DNA of 64,000 nucleotides. Origin: Vulcanimicrobiales bacterium (GTDB lineage Bacteria; Vulcanimicrobiota; Vulcanimicrobiia; Vulcanimicrobiales; Vulcanimicrobiaceae). Both the position numbers and the translations under genes were made by a program. Shown piece by piece: positions 8,684-37,500 of the stretch (position 1 is its first letter; each line of letters opens with the position of its first letter). The stretch covers positions 15,946-79,945 of the forward strand of contig JBBQQR010000008.1 of NCBI GenBank assembly GCA_038215615.1, in the 5' to 3' direction. The notes under the pieces were generated by a model. The model worked only from the letters and a program-made list of their open reading frames with translations, was not told the origin of the DNA and did not search any database.

Positions 8684-9896
8684 GTGCTCCGCCGACGAAC
8701 GTCTCGCGAACCGCTCCTGGCTGTGCGCGGTAAACAAGCGCGTTGACCAGTGGGGACTCGGGCGCAGCGAGGCGATCAAGATCAACGACAGCGTAATCCG
8801 CAAATGCGCCTACCCGAAAATCGCCCGCGTCGACGCCGAGCGCTTGCGCACCCAGCGACGTAGCGAGCCGGAAGGCGCGTGCCGCATCGAACGCTCCCGC
8901 ATCGCGGCGCGCCAGTTTCTGGAGAAACGAAGCGGCACGCATTTCATCCAGAATCGATGCATTGACGTTGGCGTCTGTTCCCAATCCGACAGGTACTCCG
9001 AGTTCGAGCAAGCCCGCAACGTCGGATATTCCGTCTCCCAAGTACTGGTTGGTCACGGGATTGTGAACCACGGATGCCCGCGCGCTCGCCAGCATCTTCT
9101 TCTCGTCCGCCTCCAAATAAATTGCGTGAACGGCGACTAGCCGTTCGTCCACGACGCCGAGACTCTCGAGCAGGCGCATCGGCGCCATGCCGAATTGTTT
9201 TGCGGTTTGTTCGCCTTCGTATGCAGCTTCGGCAACGTGGATGTGCAGGCGGCAGTTCGCCTCGCGCGCAAACTCGCCGGCCGCGCGGATCATCTCAGGC
9301 GAAGCGGCGTGTACGGAGTGCGGAGCGACGCAAACATTTGCCTCGGGGAAACGCGTCATCAGCTCGCGCGTGCGCGCCGCCGCCATATCGATCGGCTCGC
9401 GAAACGCCGCCGGAGCGGTCGGCGCATCCATCCAGCAGCGCGCCAGCACCAGCCGAATGCCCGTCTCGCGGGCCGCTTGAACGACCGCCTCGGCGTGCGA
9501 GTTGCCGCCCCCGTTGAGGTAGAAAAACTCTGCAACGGTCGTGATACCGCCAGCCAGCATTTCGCGGAATGCCGTCGCAAACGTCCGGCGCACTTCTTCG
9601 GGCGAAAGTCCGGGGACGATCCTATACAGCGCCTCATCGCGCCAGCGCGCAAACGGCAAATCGTCACCGATGCCACGCAGCAGTATCTGATAAGCGTGGC
9701 TGTGACAGTTTATGAAACCAGGGATGAGGGCAACGGCGGCGCCGTGCTCGCGAAAGGCCGCATCCGGAAAACGTTTGCGCAATTCCTCGAACGGCGCGAT
9801 CGCCGCAATGCGTTCGTTTTGAACCGCAAAACAAAAGTTGCTGCGTTCCTCGGCTTTAACGAGCGCCAGATCGGCGCGAACGATGACCGCACTCAC
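8655..9896 (-). CDS. hutF: Metal-dependent amidohydrolase, probably formiminoglutamate deiminase
   Basis: HSHAYQ, GITTVAEFFY, APHS, HIHVAE and GTD motifs; last gene of hut cluster. Confidence 0.7.
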   Translation of the reverse strand: MSAVIVRADLALVKAEERSNFCFAVQNERIAAIAPFEELRKRFPDAAFREHGAAVALIPGFINCHSHAYQILLRGIGDDLPFARWRDEALYRIVPGLSPEEVRRTFATAFREMLAGGITTVAEFFYLNGGGNSHAEAVVQAARETGIRLVLARCWMDAPTAPAAFREPIDMAAARTRELMTRFPEANVCVAPHSVHAASPEMIRAAGEFAREANCRLHIHVAEAAYEGEQTAKQFGMAPMRLLESLGVVDERLVAVHAIYLEADEKKMLASARASVVHNPVTNQYLGDGISDVAGLLELGVPVGLGTDANVNASILDEMRAASFLQKLARRDAGAFDAARAFRLATSLGAQALGVDAGDFRVGAFADYAVVDLDRLAAPESPLVNALVYRAQPGAVRETFVGGALKAASGSNS

Positions 9897-11086
9897 GAGA
9901 ACCGCACGCCGCCGCGGAAGACCGCCGCGGCCAAATTGCCTCCAAATTGAAATCCGAACTCGTCGGGCGATCCCAGTGTCAGCGCCACGAAGTCCGCGGG
10001 CTGTCCGACGCGAATGCGCCCCGCCTCTGCCCGCAGCGATTTAGCTGCCGCAAGCGTCATTCCGTACAGCGCTTCAGCTGCGCTTAAACCGTAGAGCCTG
10101 CGGCCATAGTTCGCGACCGTTTGCAAATTAAAACACGGCGAGGTTCCGGGATTGTAATCGCTAGCCAGGGCAACGGATCCGCCACGCACGAGAATCTCGC
10201 GCACCGGGCATGGCGGGAGCCCGAGATATACGGTCGTAGCGGGACACGCGACGGTCACGATACGGGCGGCAACGAGCGCTTCGATGTCGTCTTTGCGGAC
10301 GAAATTGCAATGGTCGACGGTGTCGGCTCCGGCCTGCACTGCCGCCGCTGCCGCCCCGCTGTAAGACAGCTCGTCGCAATGTGCGCGCAGCCCGAGATCG
10401 TGCGAGCGCGCAGCCGTGAGGTAGATCTGCGTTTGCGCAGGCGAAAAGAAACCGGGCTCGCAAAACACATCCGCGTATACCGCACCGTGTGCCCGGGCTT
10501 CCGGCAACACTTCCCCGATTAAGTAGTCGGTATACGCGTCCGCGTCGGGAAATTCGGACGGCACGGCATGTGCACCCAAGAACGTTGCGATCAGGTGCGG
10601 CAATCCGGGCTGATCTTTGTGCGCATCGATCAGGTCGAGCATGTGCAGTTCGCCGGCCTTCGTCAACGCGTAACCGGTTTTCACTTCGGCCGTCGTTGTG
10701 CCGTGCGCGAGCATTAATCTCAGACGGCCTTCGACCGTGCTCCAAAATGCGGCCGGGTCCAAAAGCGCCTCGCGCGTCCTTTGCACCGTGTGCAGCATCG
10801 TTTCGCCGGGTTCGCGCATCCCGGCAAAGAGCGGGTGCGTATGCGCATCGACAAATCCGGGCACGACCACGCAATCGGGCAAGTCGAATGACTGCGTGCG
10901 CCCCTCGACCTGCGCAACTGCGTCGCGCTGCTCGGGATCCTTCGACAAGCTCAGGATGACACCGCGAGCGTCGTCGATCAGAATTGAGCCGTCGCGAATC
11001 AGCCCCAGTTGTTCGAAAGTGATTCCGTTTTGTGGCGCGTCCGTATCGCAGGTAACGATCGCCCCCGCGCGGACTAAAAGCGCCAA
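9893..11086 (-). CDS. hutI: Imidazolonepropionase
   Basis: [27 protein letters not shown] and ASDYNPG motifs; adjacent to hutU. Confidence 0.9.
10898..10963 (-). repeat. Composite palindromic (REP-like) element lying in frame in hutI
   Basis: Minus strand GGTGTCATCCTGAGCTTGTCGAAGGAT-CCCGAGCAGCGCGACGCAGTTGCGCAGGTCGAGGGGCGC; 48/66 identical to 27592..27657 by hand alignment. Confidence 0.85.
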
Positions 11087-25292: not shown

Positions 25293-26072
25293 TTGACCTT
25301 ATTAAAAGGAAAGCGCGCGCTCGTCACGGGCGTAGCCAACCGCTGGTCCATCGCGACCGGCATCGCACGGCAGATGCACGAGCACGGCGCCGAGCTGGCC
25401 TTCACCTACCAAGGCGAACGCGTCAAAGATGAGGTGGCCAAACTTGCGGCCGAACTGGGCGGCGGTCCGGTCATCGAGTGCGACGTCTCTTCCGATGAAT
25501 CGCTGGCACGCTTGCGGCCGGCGCTGGCACCGTTCGGCAAACTCGATGCGGTCGTGCATTCGATAGCGTTTGCCAACAAAGAGGTCTTAACCGGAAAAGT
25601 CCACGCGACATCACGCGCCGACTTCAATCTCTCGCTCGATGTCTCGGCATATTCGCTGATCGCGCTCGTGCAAGCTCTGCAGGAAGAACTGGCGGACGGC
25701 GCCTCAATTATGGCGCTGACGTACCTTGGTGCGACGGCCATCGTCCCCAACTATAATCTGATGGGTATCGCGAAAGCTGCGCTAGAATCGGCCGTGCGTT
25801 ATCTGGCGTTCGATTTGGGCGATCGCGGAATTCGCGTGAACGCGATCTCGGCGGGCCCGATCAAGACCGCAAGCGCCCGGCAAGTCGCGGGGCTGTCGAA
25901 AATGCTGGAAGTCGTTGCAGCGACTGCGCCCTTGCGGCGCAACATGACCATCGACGATGTCGGTAAAATGGCGGTTTTCCTGGCCTCCGATCTGTCCGCT
26001 GCCGTCACAGGCGACGTGCATTTCGTCGACGGTGGATTCCACGCCATGGGAATGTACCCGCCACCGCAATGA
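25293..26072 (+). CDS. fabI: Enoyl-ACP reductase (NADH)
   Basis: GVANRWSIA, HSIAFA, YNLMGIAKAALE and RVNAISAGPIKT motifs. Confidence 0.95.
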   Translation: MTLLKGKRALVTGVANRWSIATGIARQMHEHGAELAFTYQGERVKDEVAKLAAELGGGPVIECDVSSDESLARLRPALAPFGKLDAVVHSIAFANKEVLTGKVHATSRADFNLSLDVSAYSLIALVQALQEELADGASIMALTYLGATAIVPNYNLMGIAKAALESAVRYLAFDLGDRGIRVNAISAGPIKTASARQVAGLSKMLEVVAATAPLRRNMTIDDVGKMAVFLASDLSAAVTGDVHFVDGGFHAMGMYPPPQ

Positions 26073-26275
26073 GCGACGAGGAAGACATCCTCGCGATCGT
26101 CACCGCGCTGGAGTTCTTGGAAGCGCGTCATTCGACAGGCTCAGGTCAGACCGCACCGGATTCGCAGTCGCGGTGGAAGACGTCGGGGCGCATCACTTGG
26201 TGTCATGGTGAGCCTGTCGAACCATGGCCGAGCTTGTCGAGGCCCGAGCGTAAGCGTACGTGGAAAAACTCTTAG
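26069..26275 (+). CDS. Putative acyl-CoA carboxylase epsilon subunit with repeat-derived segments
   Basis: EEDILAIVTAL..SRWKTSGR pattern resembles AccE/PccE; overlaps fabI stop and carboxylase start. Confidence 0.6.
   Translation: MSDEEDILAIVTALEFLEARHSTGSGQTAPDSQSRWKTSGRITWCHGEPVEPWPSLSRPERKRTWKNS
26131..26244. repeat. Cluster of three REP-like units
   Basis: TTCGACAGGCTCA (26131-26143) is a perfect inverse of TGAGCCTGTCGAA (26209-26221); units ATGGT-GAGC-CT-GTCGA-ACCAT and GGCC-GAGC-TT-GTCGA-GGCC in tandem. Confidence 0.85.
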
Positions 26276-27999
26276 TCGCTAATCGCGGGGAGATTGCGGT
26301 GCGCATCATGCGCACGGCCCGCGAAATGGGATTGAACACCGTCGCCGTGTATTCCGAGATCGATCGTGATGCGATGCACGTGCGTTTCGCGGACGAAGCG
26401 TATCTGCTCGGGCCGGCCAGTCCATCGCAAAGTTATCTCAACGTCGAGCGCATCTTAGAGACCGCTCACCGGGCGCAGGCCCGCTACATCCACCCCGGAT
26501 ATGGCTTTCTCGCCGAAAACGCCGCCTTCGCGCGCGCGGTTTCGCAAGTGGGGTTTATCTGGGTCGGTCCGCACGCCGACGCCATCGATGCAATGGGCGA
26601 CAAGATGCGCGCGCGGCGGGCGATGATCGCGGCCGGCGTTCCGGTCGTACCGGGTGGAACCGAAGAAATACTGGACGTTGAAGCCGCGGAATCCGCGGCA
26701 AAAACATATGGATTACCGTTAGCGCTTAAAGCCTCGGGCGGGGGCGGCGGCAAAGGCCTGAAGGTCGCGCATTCGATCGAGGAGATCGGCGCCGCGTTCT
26801 CCACTGCAAAACGCGAAGCCGAAGCGTATTTTAAGAACGGCGCCATCTATGCCGAGCGGTACCTCGAGAACCCCAAGCACATCGAGCTGCAAATTTTGGC
26901 CGACAAACACGGTACGGTTCTGCACGTCGGCGAGCGCGATTGTTCGCTGCAGCGGCGCCACCAGAAATTGTGGGAAGAAACGCCGCCGGCAGTTTCATCC
27001 CGCGTGCGCGAAGGCATTCGTGAAGCGGGCATTCGCGCGGCCAAAGCGATCGGTTATGACAGTGCGGGCACGATCGAATGGCTTGTGAGCGGGGAAGAGT
27101 TCTTTTTTCTCGAGATGAACACGCGCATTCAGGTCGAGCACACGGTCACCGAAATGGTGAGCGGCCTCGATTTGGTGCGGGAACAGATCCGCTCTGCGGC
27201 GGGCGAGCCGCTCGGTTACGATCAAGGCGCGATCGCATTCCGCGGGCACTCCATCGAAGGTCGCATCAACGCCGAAGATCCGGCCAACGATTTCCGGCCG
27301 GCGCCGGGGACCGTCACCACCTACCGCGAGCCCGGAGGTCTGGGCGTACGCATCGATTCGGCCGCTTTCCCCGGCTTCACGATCGGCTCCGACTACGATT
27401 CGATGATCGCCAAACTCGTCGTCTGGGCGCCCGATAGAACGCAGGCGCTCGGGCGTTTTCGCCGCGCCCTCGACGAGTACGTCATCGAAGGCGTGCCGAC
27501 GACCGTTCATCTTCTGCGGCAGCTGTGCGATCATGCACCGGTCGTGGACGCGACGTACACAACATCGACGCTCGAAACGTTCGCCGCCTCCGGTGTCATG
27601 GTGAGCTTGTCGAACCACCCTGAGCGGCGTGCCGTAGGCACGCCTGTCGAAGGGCATTCCGAACAAATCCCCGTCGAAGTTAACGGCAAGCTCTACCACG
27701 TGCGCGTTTTCGATCGACCCTCGAAGGGTGCGATCCGCAAACCTCGGCGCGGAGCTCGTAACGAACGCGCGGCTGCGGCGAGCGGAAACGACGTCGTTTC
27801 GCCGATGCACGGCGCTGTTGTTGAGATGCCGGTGAGCGAAGGAGCTACGGTCACGGAGGGGCAGGTCGTCGCCGTGGTCGAGGCGATGAAAATGATGAAC
27901 GAGATCCGGGCCCACAAATCCGGCACGGTTTCGAAAATACACGCGCAGCCCGGCGAGACAGTCGAGTCCAACGGAACGCTCGTAACAATCGCGGACTAA
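26260..27999 (+). CDS. pccA: Acyl-CoA carboxylase alpha subunit (biotin carboxylase fused to BCCP)
   Basis: ANRGEIA, HPGYGFLAEN, ERDCSLQRRHQK, EMNTRIQVEH and biotinylation motif EAMKM. Confidence 0.93.
   Translation: MEKLLVANRGEIAVRIMRTAREMGLNTVAVYSEIDRDAMHVRFADEAYLLGPASPSQSYLNVERILETAHRAQARYIHPGYGFLAENAAFARAVSQVGFIWVGPHADAIDAMGDKMRARRAMIAAGVPVVPGGTEEILDVEAAESAAKTYGLPLALKASGGGGGKGLKVAHSIEEIGAAFSTAKREAEAYFKNGAIYAERYLENPKHIELQILADKHGTVLHVGERDCSLQRRHQKLWEETPPAVSSRVREGIREAGIRAAKAIGYDSAGTIEWLVSGEEFFFLEMNTRIQVEHTVTEMVSGLDLVREQIRSAAGEPLGYDQGAIAFRGHSIEGRINAEDPANDFRPAPGTVTTYREPGGLGVRIDSAAFPGFTIGSDYDSMIAKLVVWAPDRTQALGRFRRALDEYVIEGVPTTVHLLRQLCDHAPVVDATYTTSTLETFAASGVMVSLSNHPERRAVGTPVEGHSEQIPVEVNGKLYHVRVFDRPSKGAIRKPRRGARNERAAAASGNDVVSPMHGAVVEMPVSEGATVTEGQVVAVVEAMKMMNEIRAHKSGTVSKIHAQPGETVESNGTLVTIAD
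27592..27657 (+). repeat. Composite palindromic (REP-like) element lying in frame after the biotin carboxylase domain
   Basis: GGTGTCATGGTGAGCTTGTCGAACCAC-CCTGAGCGGCGTGCCGTAGGCACGCCTGTCGAAGGGCAT; homologous to the hutI copy. Confidence 0.85.
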
Positions 28000-34548: not shown

Positions 34549-37500
34549 TTGCAGATTTCCTCGTTCGGCCTGCGTCACAGTAAAACGATTGCGTTCCTCG
34601 TGGCGATGCTCGCCGTCGTCGGCGTGTGGGCCTACGCCGTCACGCCCGCGAGCATTTTCCCCGACATGTCTTTCGCGCGAATCGACGTCGTCGTGGAAGC
34701 GGGCGACCTTCCGCCCGATCAGGTGCGCACGGCAGTCGCGGTTCCTTTAGAGAACGCGTTTCTGGGATTGCCGTCGGTCTCGCGGGTCACGGCGAATTCG
34801 GCGCAAGGCAGCGCCGAATTTTTGGTGACGTTCGATCCCAAGACCGATGCGCGCTTCGACCTGCAGTACGTGAACCAGGCCGTGGCGCAAGTGCGCGCGT
34901 CGATACCGGCGCTCACGAACGTCGAAGCCGTCATCGTAAATCCAAACAGTGAGCCGGTCGTTTCGTACGCCTTGGTCTCTCACTCGATGTCGCAAACGAT
35001 GCTGCGCGAGCTCGCGCAGCAGTCACTCCTTCCGGAGTTCTACGGCACACCCGGACTGGCGCGCATCCTCATGGTCGGCGGCCCGCAGCGCGAATATCAC
35101 GTCACGCTCGATCCGGCGGCGCTGGCGTCGCGCGGACTCACCGCGCAAGACGTCGCAAATGCGGTAGCCGGGGCGAACAACGTCAGCTCGCTCGGAGTCG
35201 CTCAGCAGTATTACCGGCGCAATGTCCTCGTGCTCGACGCCGGCGTCAAGAACGCGGCTGCGATCGCTTCTATCGTCGTTCCGGCGGGCGGACGGGCCGC
35301 CCCGGTGGCGGTGGGACAATTGGGCTCCGTAACGCTGGGTGTTGCGCCGTCAACGACGCAGGTGAGTTACGATGCGCAACATGCGGTCGCGCTCAATTTC
35401 TTCGGGTTGCCGGGTGCGGACGCGGTGAAAATGGCGGCTGGCATTAAAGCCAAGATGTCCGCGCTTTTAGCGCACTTGCCGGGAGACATCACCGTCTCAC
35501 GCTTCTGGGATCAGACCGATCTCGTCGTCGAATCTCAACGCAGCCTCCGCGACGCAATTCTCGCCGGTGCGTTTCTGGCAATTCTGGTCATCCTGGTCTT
35601 TCTTCGCAATCTTCGGATGACGCTCGTCGCCGCAATCGTTATTCCGATCGCTATGACTATTACGGTTTTCGTGATGAACCGCTTCGGCCAAACCCTGAAT
35701 TTGATGAGCGTGGGTGGCCTGGCGGTTGCCGTCGGTTTAATCATCGACGACGCTATCGTCGTCGTCGAAAACATTTCACGAAATTTTCGCGCCTATCCGG
35801 AGATGCGCAAAGCCGACGTTATCACGATCTCCATGGGCGAATTGGCGGCGCCGATGGCGGCCTCGACATTCACAACCGTCGTCGTGTTTGTCCCGCTGCT
35901 GCTGCTCACGGGCGTAAGCGGCTTCTTCTTCCGCGCGCTCGCGCTGACGCTGGCGGCTTCGCTCATCGTCTCACTGTGCCTAGCGCTGTTCGTCGCACCC
36001 ATTTTGGCCGCGAACCTCATACCGGAGAATACGCAGCATACCGAAGATACCGGCTTCATTGCCAGGCTGCTCGCGCGATACGAGCCACTGCTGCGCTGGG
36101 CATTGAGCCACCGCGCGGCGATGTACGGCGGATCGGTTGCCGTGCTGATCGTTACCGGGCTGCTGCTCGCGAAACTACCGAGCGACTTTCTTCCGCACCT
36201 CGACGAAGGCCAGTTCGAAATTAGATATGCTATGCCGGTCGGCACGACGCTCGAGGCAAGCGACACAGCTGCCACCACAATGGAACGCATCGCGCTGCGC
36301 GATCCGGCGATCGAGTCCGTCGGCCGTTTTACCGGGATCGATACCAATGGATTTTCACCCACGCAAGTGCGGCAAGGCACGATCCGCCTGCGCCTGCGCA
36401 CCGGTAGCCGTCCCTCCTACGAAGTCGTCAGCGAGCGGTTGCGCGATGCGTTTACAACCGCGATTCCGGCCGCGCAATTCAACTTCCATCAAATACTCGA
36501 GGACATGATCAACGACATGTCCGGCGCGCCTTCGCCGATTCAAATCACGGTGCGCGGCCCGGATCAAGACCTGCTGATCTCGCTGGCGAACCGGATCACC
36601 GATAGGATCGCCGGCGTGCCGGGACTTGCCGACGCGTTTTCGGGCGTCAGCTACGACGATCCGACTATGCGCATCTCACCTTACGGAGGACGTCTGGCAG
36701 CTTTGAATCTTACAGCCGCCGACTTAGGAAACGCGCTGCAGGCTTCCGCCCAGGGCGGTATCGCCACGAACGTGGCGGGCACGCTGGACCGCGTCCCGGT
36801 GCGCGTGAGTATGGTGAGGCCACCAGGTGGCGCGGCCGCGGGCCTGATCTCGACGCCGTCCGGCGTCGTGGCGCTGAACTCCGTCGCGCAGGTCGCTCCG
36901 AGCCGGCTCTCGACCGACATCAGCGAAATCAATGGCGCACGCGTGATTACGATCACGGCAAATTATGCCGGCGTCACACTTTCGTCGGTGATCGGCGGCG
37001 TCCAAAGAACCCTCCAAAGCATGTCGTTACCGCCCGGTTATTCGGCCAGCATTGGGGGCGCGTACGAAGCGCAGCAGCAATCGTTTCGCGAGTTCGCGCA
37101 GGTCGTACTCATGGCGATCGCACTGGTCTACTTCGTGATGCTGGCGGCATTCAGATCGTACCGGCTCCCGATGGTTATCCTCACCGCTATCCCGCTCGCG
37201 ATTATCGGCGTTGCTATCGCGCTGTTCGTCACGGGGACGCCGTTCAATGTCTCGTCCTTCATGGGAATACTGCTGCTCGTCGGTATCGTCGTAAAAAACG
37301 GCATCTTACTGATCGACGTAGCCAACAAACGCCGCCTGGAGGGCGCCAACGTGCACGACGCGCTCGTGGCTGCGGGACGAACGCGCCTGCGGCCGATCGT
37401 GATGACGACCTTCGCTGCGATCGGCGGTTTGCTGCCGCTCGCATTCGGCATCGGATCCGGTTCGGCGATGGAACAACCCTTGGCTATTGCCGTCATCGGC

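Follow-up and report, generated by a model that had tools for sequence, protein, structure and literature searches.

A TGTC-tagged, REP-like double hairpin lies in frame in two unrelated enzyme genes of the 64,000-nt stretch of Vulcanimicrobiales DNA analysed here (the window), and analogy with described repeat and nuclease pairs suggests that it is probably the recognition site of a stand-alone GIY-YIG nuclease that cuts, spreads and rearranges its copies. The window's own genome, of 2.2 Mb, is referred to as G000, and the comparison set comprised 41 genomes, ten of the genus and 31 others.

Anatomy and copy number of the double hairpin

Comparison of positions 10898-10963 (-) in hutI with 27592-27657 (+) in the biotin carboxylase gene gave an ungapped alignment with 48/66 identical nucleotides. 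In-frame translation of both 66-nt segments gave a 22-aa peptide in HutI and GVMVSLSNHPERRAVGTPVEGH in the biotin carboxylase, reproducing the match and the two peptides reported in an earlier note on this DNA. The element proper is 61 nt long. One full copy (10901-10961, -) is in frame at residues ~42-62 of HutI, with a TGTC tag and an inner hairpin in unit 2, and the other (27594-27654, +) is in frame at residues ~445-465, in the stretch that links the biotin carboxylase domain to BCCP. A hidden Markov model (HMM) built from 18 full-length copies, with reporting at E<=10, gave 73 matches in the genome, 22 of them above 46 bits, while the best match in the reversed genome scored 10.5 bits. 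A structure-aware scan detected 41 tagged units in G000 and 0 in the reversed genome. Merging HMM matches of at least 12.4 bits with the structure-defined units yielded 56 element loci in G000, so that the further genomic copies for which the earlier note had proposed a scan do exist.

The full form of about 61 nt consists of the TGTC tag followed by unit 1 and unit 2. Unit 1 is ordered as a 4-bp stem, GA, G, a short loop, C, GA and the complementary stem, and unit 2 has the same build with an additional inner hairpin of 6-7 bp. The dominant form is a head-to-tail double unit in which the second unit has no tag of its own, which bears out on full copies the tandem two-unit anatomy described before. 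The tag is TGTC in 23/24 full copies and TGCC in 1/24. The stem begins with AT, the T being paired in 24/24 full copies and the A mostly unpaired, and is interrupted by a GA/GA mismatch. The 4-bp stem alternates among TCCT/AGGA, TCGT/ACGA and TGGT/ACCA across copies, and the pair beside the second GA between C-G and T-A, with GA/GA constant throughout. Across 11 copies, 94.6% of cells pair and 11/19 pairs are altered on both sides, a level reached in 0/500 shuffles; kinship among these copies inflates the result, which is not readable as a probability. The compensatory stem changes claimed at the outset are thus upheld. The C-GNA-G triloop claimed with them fared less uniformly, in that the inner hairpin is present and its loop varies from 3 to 5 nt, C-GNA-G not being constant.

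Two-unit junctions number 1-45 per genome in the ten genomes of the genus and 0-4 in the 31 others. The proposed lineage specificity therefore applies to the two-unit 61-nt form, which is genus-enriched, and not to the single hairpin core, which also flanks genes of homologous nucleases in Bacteroidota, Acidobacteriota and further groups. In DNA, sheared G-A pairs in tandem are stable, and the opposite strand would carry TC/TC at the mismatch, so the hairpin shape should be strand-specific; the predicted DNA folding energies of the two strands are similar, at -12.1 vs -11.0 kcal/mol. Two other identities for the element were discarded. A kink-turn reading of the tandem GA was rejected on inspection, the 3-nt bulge being absent beside GA. 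A convergent or shared protein motif was also rejected, as the majority of copies fall outside called genes, the copies use several frames and both strands, and their synonymous sites are conserved.

Coding copies and the fate of host residues

Gene calls from an in-house hexamer codon model place 92% of the genome in coding sequence. Twenty of the 56 loci lie wholly within predicted genes with no stop, or 22 when the two copies in a missed 68-aa ORF are counted, and this intragenic share (36-39% of loci) is well below the coding fraction and far above the 2% given for Neisseria NTS in PMC11893778. The earlier note had called for such a count of intragenic in-frame against other copies. Essential genes are among the hosts, which by Pfam comprise LipB, an Lhr helicase, AtpD (ATP synthase beta), PurL (a weak copy), IleRS, a thymidine phosphorylase-like protein, TrpE, RF3, an alpha-mannosidase, LigA, ComEA, NuoG, two xanthine dehydrogenase-like subunits, the LigD primase-polymerase (two copies), HutI and the carboxylase; two host ORFs gave no Pfam match. 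Five of the six reading frames of full copies are usually open, the third sense frame having a stop in 24/24, and genes use both open sense frames as well as the antisense strand (6/20 intragenic copies). The sequences suggest that in-frame copies are likely translated and tolerated. In the Lhr helicase (L087:1004-3724, -), tandem amplification of a 21-nt piece of the element's 5' arm yields CHPELSD repeats at residues ~612-651, and comEA, a competence gene (L096:217-822, +), itself holds an antisense in-frame copy.

The other 36 copies lie outside called genes, 25 of them between co-directional genes, in sense orientation for 17 and antisense for 8, and 7 where neighbouring genes converge, and a TGA inside a copy terminates five genes in G000 (C1:210117, C4:123441, C7:34124, C19:21013 and C24:3403). 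These positions and gene ends would suit hairpins kept for a role at the RNA level, in mRNA stability, pausing or termination, with the coding copies as tolerated by-products, and a similar argument is made for REPs in the accessible part of PMC3733652. We regard this role as very improbable, as both orientations occur inside genes, sites are gained and lost among close relatives, and the origin of the copies would be left unexplained. Three loci searched against Rfam gave no match at E<=1, on which grounds a known RNA family was rejected as the identity of the element.

The imidazolonepropionase gene hutI (9893..11086, -) retains its metal-binding residues. Its best NCBIfam match is TIGR01224, below the cut-off, and it matches 2BB0 at E 2.6e-48 with a TM of 0.92. 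The second host gene (26260..27999, +) encodes a biotin carboxylase-BCCP fusion of an acyl-CoA carboxylase. Both are under purifying selection outside the element, with dN/dS of 0.09-0.15 for hutI and 0.06-0.10 for the carboxylase (0.06-0.15 overall, five congeners each). At the hutI site, element-derived sequence is present in 9/9 genus genomes with a match, six detected by the HMM and three by reading, and in 0/21 from other genera. In G002 and G003, the native GVIxAVGG strand is kept and the element is added behind it. In G001, G005 and G007, the element starts four or five residues past the Gly, in the Cys-His frame, and in G000 and G006 it starts at Gly-Val-Ile itself, in the VILS frame. 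Read from these sequences, the congeners form a series in which the native strand is kept, then partly eroded and then fully replaced. The net gain in HutI length is only 2-4 residues, so ~17-19 native residues are gone.

Analysis of AlphaFold models indicated a strand at 51-57 followed by a helix at 58-65 at this site in an element-free HutI orthologue, and a strand at 43-49 (VILSLSK) followed by a helix at 50-59 in the G000 protein. The pLDDT over the latter two blocks is 90 and 68 (68 at residues 51-60), and the alignment behind the G000 model held element-free orthologues, which can impose the native fold. The element peptide is thus predicted to take over the native strand and helix, in keeping with the earlier proposal that it occupies a normal strand of the small beta domain. 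Between G000 and G006, dS outside the element is 0.94; inside it, 2 of 16.2 synonymous sites have changed. Such low synonymous change fits either constraint at the DNA level or a recent conversion. Behind the HxH motif, HutI of eight genomes of the genus also lacks ~7-15 residues (window ~10790-10820, -; residues ~90-97), which G009 and other genera keep.

The carboxylase linker carries the element in 9/9 genus genomes, in one of them largely in reverse orientation, and in 1/21 others. It brings no net length gain there, native residues being replaced. As judged from the aligned sequences, the element in both HutI and the carboxylase replaces host residues, with exchange among congeners, and is not a simple insertion. 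The original picture of a hairpin family entering ORFs consequently stands as regards in-frame presence in many unrelated genes and absence from nearly all orthologues of other genera, and gives way, for these two proteins, to replacement. Directly upstream, a 68-aa ORF (26069..26275, +) lies between an enoyl-ACP reductase and the biotin carboxylase, overlaps the carboxylase start and is conserved in relatives upstream of the carboxylase. It contains a third, shorter copy (26201..26244, +), in frame near its 3' end, and a fourth, an antisense hairpin remnant (26126..26145, -; STGSG), also in frame; both are absent in G004 and G005. The ORF gave no Pfam match, and its pattern A-I-V-x-A-L ... 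S-R-W-K presumably recalls acyl-CoA carboxylase epsilon subunits.

Empty sites, which the earlier note had proposed to seek among orthologues, occur outside the genus at hutI and the carboxylase and inside it at nuoG, prfC, ligA and atpD. In nuoG, prfC and ligA the element is a near-clean addition of ~14-25 residues, and the site is empty in G001 and G009 for nuoG, in G009 for prfC, and in G001, G002 and G009 for ligA; the species tree favours a loss for the empty ligA site of G002. The atpD genes of G000, G002 and G006 contain an 18-nt remnant; the other six of nine genus genomes covering the site, with proteins 92-99% identical, lack it. In ileS, the element occurs in the 8 genus genomes read at the DNA level. 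Congeners carry differing variants and frames at one shared site, and the copies in hutI of G006 and ileS of G007 are decaying. An independent, differing hairpin variant (CHPERSEA...) stands at both the ileS (L208) and the carboxylase (L040) site in G012, a member of another genus, so these loops are either recurrent targets or uniquely tolerant. Most intragenic sites are common to the genus, and the insertions are therefore old. Inspection by eye at seven genes found no target-site duplication and no clean junction rule.

The hairpin-bracketed GIY-YIG gene

The window holds no GIY-YIG gene, consistent with the earlier statement that a mobilising enzyme is absent from it. The three PF01541 matches in G000 are on other contigs and comprise a long protein (683-aa frame) taken to be UvrC, a YazA-like gene that lacks repeats, and a small gene bracketed by hairpins. 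The last belongs to a cassette (C9:35974-36433) in which two inverted full copies, tags outward, surround the small GIY-YIG gene (C9 ~36078-36365; L061:1492-1779). The repeat-flanked enzyme that had been sought therefore has a candidate counterpart elsewhere in the genome, as a GIY-YIG gene and not as a RAYT/Y1. Y1 transposases (PF01797) were found neither in G000 nor in the 17 other nuclease-bearing genomes, and occur in 6/41 genomes and 0/18 of those with the nuclease; IS110 (PF01548) was not found in G000. Both RAYT/Y1 and IS110 were rejected as mobilisers on these searches.

The nuclease gene of G000 is frameshifted by the lack of one base in an A-run around codon 66, and contigs of one public DNA run show the same frameshift, possibly from the source sample and hence not independently; they gave no joint informative about polymorphism within the population. 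Intact copies of 96 aa occur in G006, G007 and G008, those of G005 and G009 being truncated, and the system may have lost its activity in the present genome. Intact related nucleases have 93-107 aa and a single GIY-YIG domain, with PF01541 over the cut-off, and the positions matching the catalytic Y6, Y17 and E64 of SsnA (residues from the available part of PMC11893778) are invariant in the group. Among the matches listed, the closest named homologues of the G000 nuclease are in Vulcanimicrobiota (Eremiobacterota) assemblies. In several relatives (L072, L073, L078 and L080), the downstream hairpin supplies the C-terminus and stop of the nuclease (ends PSTGSG or PSTRSG).

Nuclease homologues occur in 18/41 genomes, with such hairpins near 20/22 loci. 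The 18 gene-bearing genomes have 73-633 loose motif matches and the 22 lacking the gene (G036 left out) have 21-96, and, within the same family outside the genus, 172-633 in 8 with the gene vs 22-96 in 7 without; the motif has a high background, overlapping matches are counted, and G020 has 96 matches without a gene match. The genomes are related, and gene-hairpin co-occurrence is therefore not an independent test. In the wider genome collection, 76/78 homologues (the best 80 of 549, minus two near-copies of congeners) have hairpins within 500 nt, 57 of them on both sides, vs 3/78 in reversed controls. The flanked homologues of this best-80 sample are distributed over Vulcanimicrobiota, Bacteroidota, Acidobacteriota and a Peribacteria genome.

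Such flanking, together with whole-variant and frame swaps at one site, points to a recognising protein. It argues against reading the copies as relics of an old burst, with covariation and turnover arising from enzyme-free template switching or slippage in quasi-palindromes. Template switching in quasi-palindromes does give paired changes, and an old burst would agree with intragenic sites mostly older than the split of close congeners, with the decaying copies and with the frameshifted local nuclease. The same process should perfect the palindrome, whereas GA/GA and the tag are near-invariant while neighbouring pairs flip, and we judge the relic reading improbable.

Analysis of the ileS locus revealed several states of the cassette: no hairpin in G001 and G009, a hairpin pair without the gene in G003, and the full cassette in G000. 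In G008, the nuclease and a neighbouring cytochrome gene are inverted between inverted copies, and in G005-G007 the nuclease gene is flipped again between inverted copies. Gene order thus records two hairpin-bounded inversions, one of the nuclease gene itself. Across the genus the gene lies at several unrelated loci and is often broken.

These states are relevant to a second reading, in which the nuclease would be an SsnA-like enzyme domesticated as a guard, cutting transforming ssDNA at the hairpins as it enters, and the hairpins would spread and turn over by nothing more than ordinary recombination or conversion during natural transformation. Inversions between inverted copies need host recombination only, G000 carries ComEC and ComEA, and in the accessible portion of PMC11893778 no function other than guarding has been shown for a related enzyme. 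The scattered and often broken gene fits a mobile cassette better, and new sites without prior homology (nuoG, prfC, ligA) require an insertion step, so that a guard with no part in hairpin spread appears unlikely to us.

In the preferred reading, of the hairpin as the recognition site of a nuclease that spreads it, the enzyme would likely nick single-stranded DNA beside the TGTC tag, with strand-specific recognition and cleavage, both by analogy with SsnA. Repair from another copy, through recombination or conversion, could then insert, convert or invert hairpins and might also erode host sequence on the tag side, a polarity that the hutI series and stacks of orphan 5' arms would fit. Selection would keep only frame-preserving outcomes, the peptides presumably being translated. 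Orphan 5' arms lie upstream of the tag in 43/294 hairpins vs orphan 3' arms downstream in 15, a weak test with unequal definitions and non-independent loci; the 79 cases of orphan 5' arms are mostly not copies of the upstream flank. They lie on the side where SsnA cuts, which by this analogy weakly suggests tag-side polarity. Against mobilisation stand the broken enzyme in G000, the age of most sites and the lack, to our knowledge, of any joining activity of the GIY-YIG domain. The more specific proposal, that the mobiliser missing for CGTC-type hairpins with a GA/GA mismatch is a widespread line of GIY-YIG enzymes beyond the Ssn clade tested so far, and that repeated tag-side cutting in this genus makes the hairpin creep into coding sequence, switch frames and replace a core beta-strand and helix of HutI as a working enzyme, is tentative, and we hold it to be possible rather than probable.

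Relation to known repeats and nucleases

According to the available part of Di Nocera et al. 2013 (PMC3733652), CGTC-tagged REPs have a terminal unpaired CGTC, TGTC or CCTC tag, a stem of 8-9 bp whose positions 1-2 are a complementary AT, and a loop of 4-5 nt. They form head-to-head dimers with negligible head-to-tail forms, have no flanked tyrosine transposase in that description, and belong to a superfamily that includes intragenic copies and the R. conorii RPE-4 and RPE-6. Like them (PMC3733652), the element has an unpaired TGTC tag before a stem that starts with AT, the A of which is mostly unpaired here; it occurs in tens to hundreds of copies without a RAYT, and its in-frame copies encode 8-30 aa and reach tRNA synthetases, ligase and helicases as well. 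Unlike the CGTC REPs of the same text, it has a stem broken by an invariant GA/GA mismatch, a head-to-tail double unit and an intragenic share of 36-39% of loci. Its peptides VILS, VMVS, CHPE, CHGE, SLSK and PSTG are not in the CGTC REP peptide list of the portion available, and, compared by description, the phylum, the replacement of host residues and the frame swaps among congeners also distinguish it. Like RAYT/REPtrons as that portion describes them, the cassette has a gene bracketed by inverted REPs and a gene-less pair at the same locus (G003), and the RAYT enzyme is thought to act on ssDNA hairpins, as is presumed here. Unlike them, no Y1/HUH transposase was found, the tag is TGTC and not GTAG, and the enzyme is a hydrolytic GIY-YIG nuclease.

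In the accessible sections of Chenal et al. 2025 (PMC11893778), SsnA binds a hairpin with a CGTC tag in ssDNA form only, and its cut falls a few bases 5' of that hairpin. The activities demonstrated in those sections are ssDNA cutting and a lowering of transformation, repeat mobilisation not being among them, and 2% of the Neisseria NTS are intragenic in N. meningitidis. Shared with the Ssn/NTS system are a stand-alone GIY-YIG gene of ~95 aa bracketed by oriented HGTC-tagged hairpins, many genomic copies, the positions of the catalytic Tyr, Tyr and Glu, and a conserved C after the stem (PMC11893778, same sections). The SRM motif published there has 13 matches in G000, all unrelated and including 0 element copies, and matches 0/22 and 0/78 nuclease flanks.

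Phylogenetic analysis of 44 rows (UvrC, two long-branch rows and 67 near-redundant rows left out) separated SsnA-like proteins (9 rows, 100/98), YazA-like proteins (6 rows, 100/97) and the nuclease group described here (29 rows, 92/78). In blastp searches, the best match of the group to an N. gonorrhoeae homologue was at 2e-10 and that of the G006 copy at 8e-9, near the Ssn threshold of E<1e-10. By tree and blastp the group thus appears to fall outside the tested SsnA/cd10448 clade, a placement near thresholds. The YazA/UPF0213 profile outscores in 96/96 members of the group, and an unfinished 114-row tree placed three alphaproteobacterial proteins with YazA. The identity of a UPF0213/YazA housekeeping GIY-YIG was rejected, since YazA-like proteins, including the other small GIY-YIG of G000, form their own group without hairpins. 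The link of the nuclease to 1ZG2 is one of sequence likeness only. E. bovis, E. tenax, A. hitonicola and C. changwenlii carry the nuclease clade, and in the table of PMC11893778, as far as available, they fail the strict columns and pass the loose PSSM; five other clade-bearing species pass the strict tests of that paper, possibly via a second gene. The hairpins beside the SsnA-group genes on L103 (a Planktothrix plasmid) and L191 (a Spirosoma plasmid) have the GA mismatch and escape the published SRM motif, which means that this hairpin type also exists outside the present nuclease clade.

Long palindromic elements of the Rickettsia RPE-1 type, attributed to Ogata et al., are said to be palindromic DNA read as a new peptide in housekeeping proteins. 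The element resembles them in its in-frame copies in conserved genes, absent from orthologues. It differs in being shorter, in using several frames, in its free-living host and in the presence of a candidate cognate nuclease, and, unlike the surface inserts of RPE-1, the HutI element is predicted to substitute a native structural element.

Compared mainly through text descriptions in the portions available, the element appears to operate as a CGTC REP paired with an Ssn nuclease would, and is strictly a member of neither as published. CGTC-tagged intragenic REPs (PMC3733652) and Ssn nucleases with hairpins (PMC11893778) are already known from these portions. Least ordinary are two features: a structural strand and helix predicted to be replaced, with switches of frame among congeners, and a nuclease lineage matched to the hairpin, apparently outside the tested Ssn clade, with hairpin-bounded inversions. 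Literature searches on GIY-YIG with REPs, Eremiobacterota palindromes and strand replacement by palindromes, with most subscription papers outside their coverage, returned nothing closer than PMC3733652 and PMC11893778, and a search on UPF0213/YhbQ of the same coverage returned no relevant paper.

The available text of PMC3733652 describes CGTC REPs as lacking a dedicated transposase, and a candidate partner nuclease is seen here. The Ssn paper, in its accessible part, put forward mobility as a hypothesis only and left the GA-mismatch hairpin type outside its motif (PMC11893778). A matched pair of hairpin and nuclease, intact in three congeners and accompanied by filled, empty and inverted states, makes the question of mobilisation testable, and adds the enzyme as a candidate for an ssDNA nuclease of new specificity. 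In hutI, the series among congeners offers a natural experiment in how non-coding repeats become structural protein sequence; if the reading is true, selfish DNA would rewrite part of a protein fold, beyond decorating a loop. In G000, the nuclease frameshift falls in an A-run, where ribosomal slippage is one conceivable route to a full-length protein.
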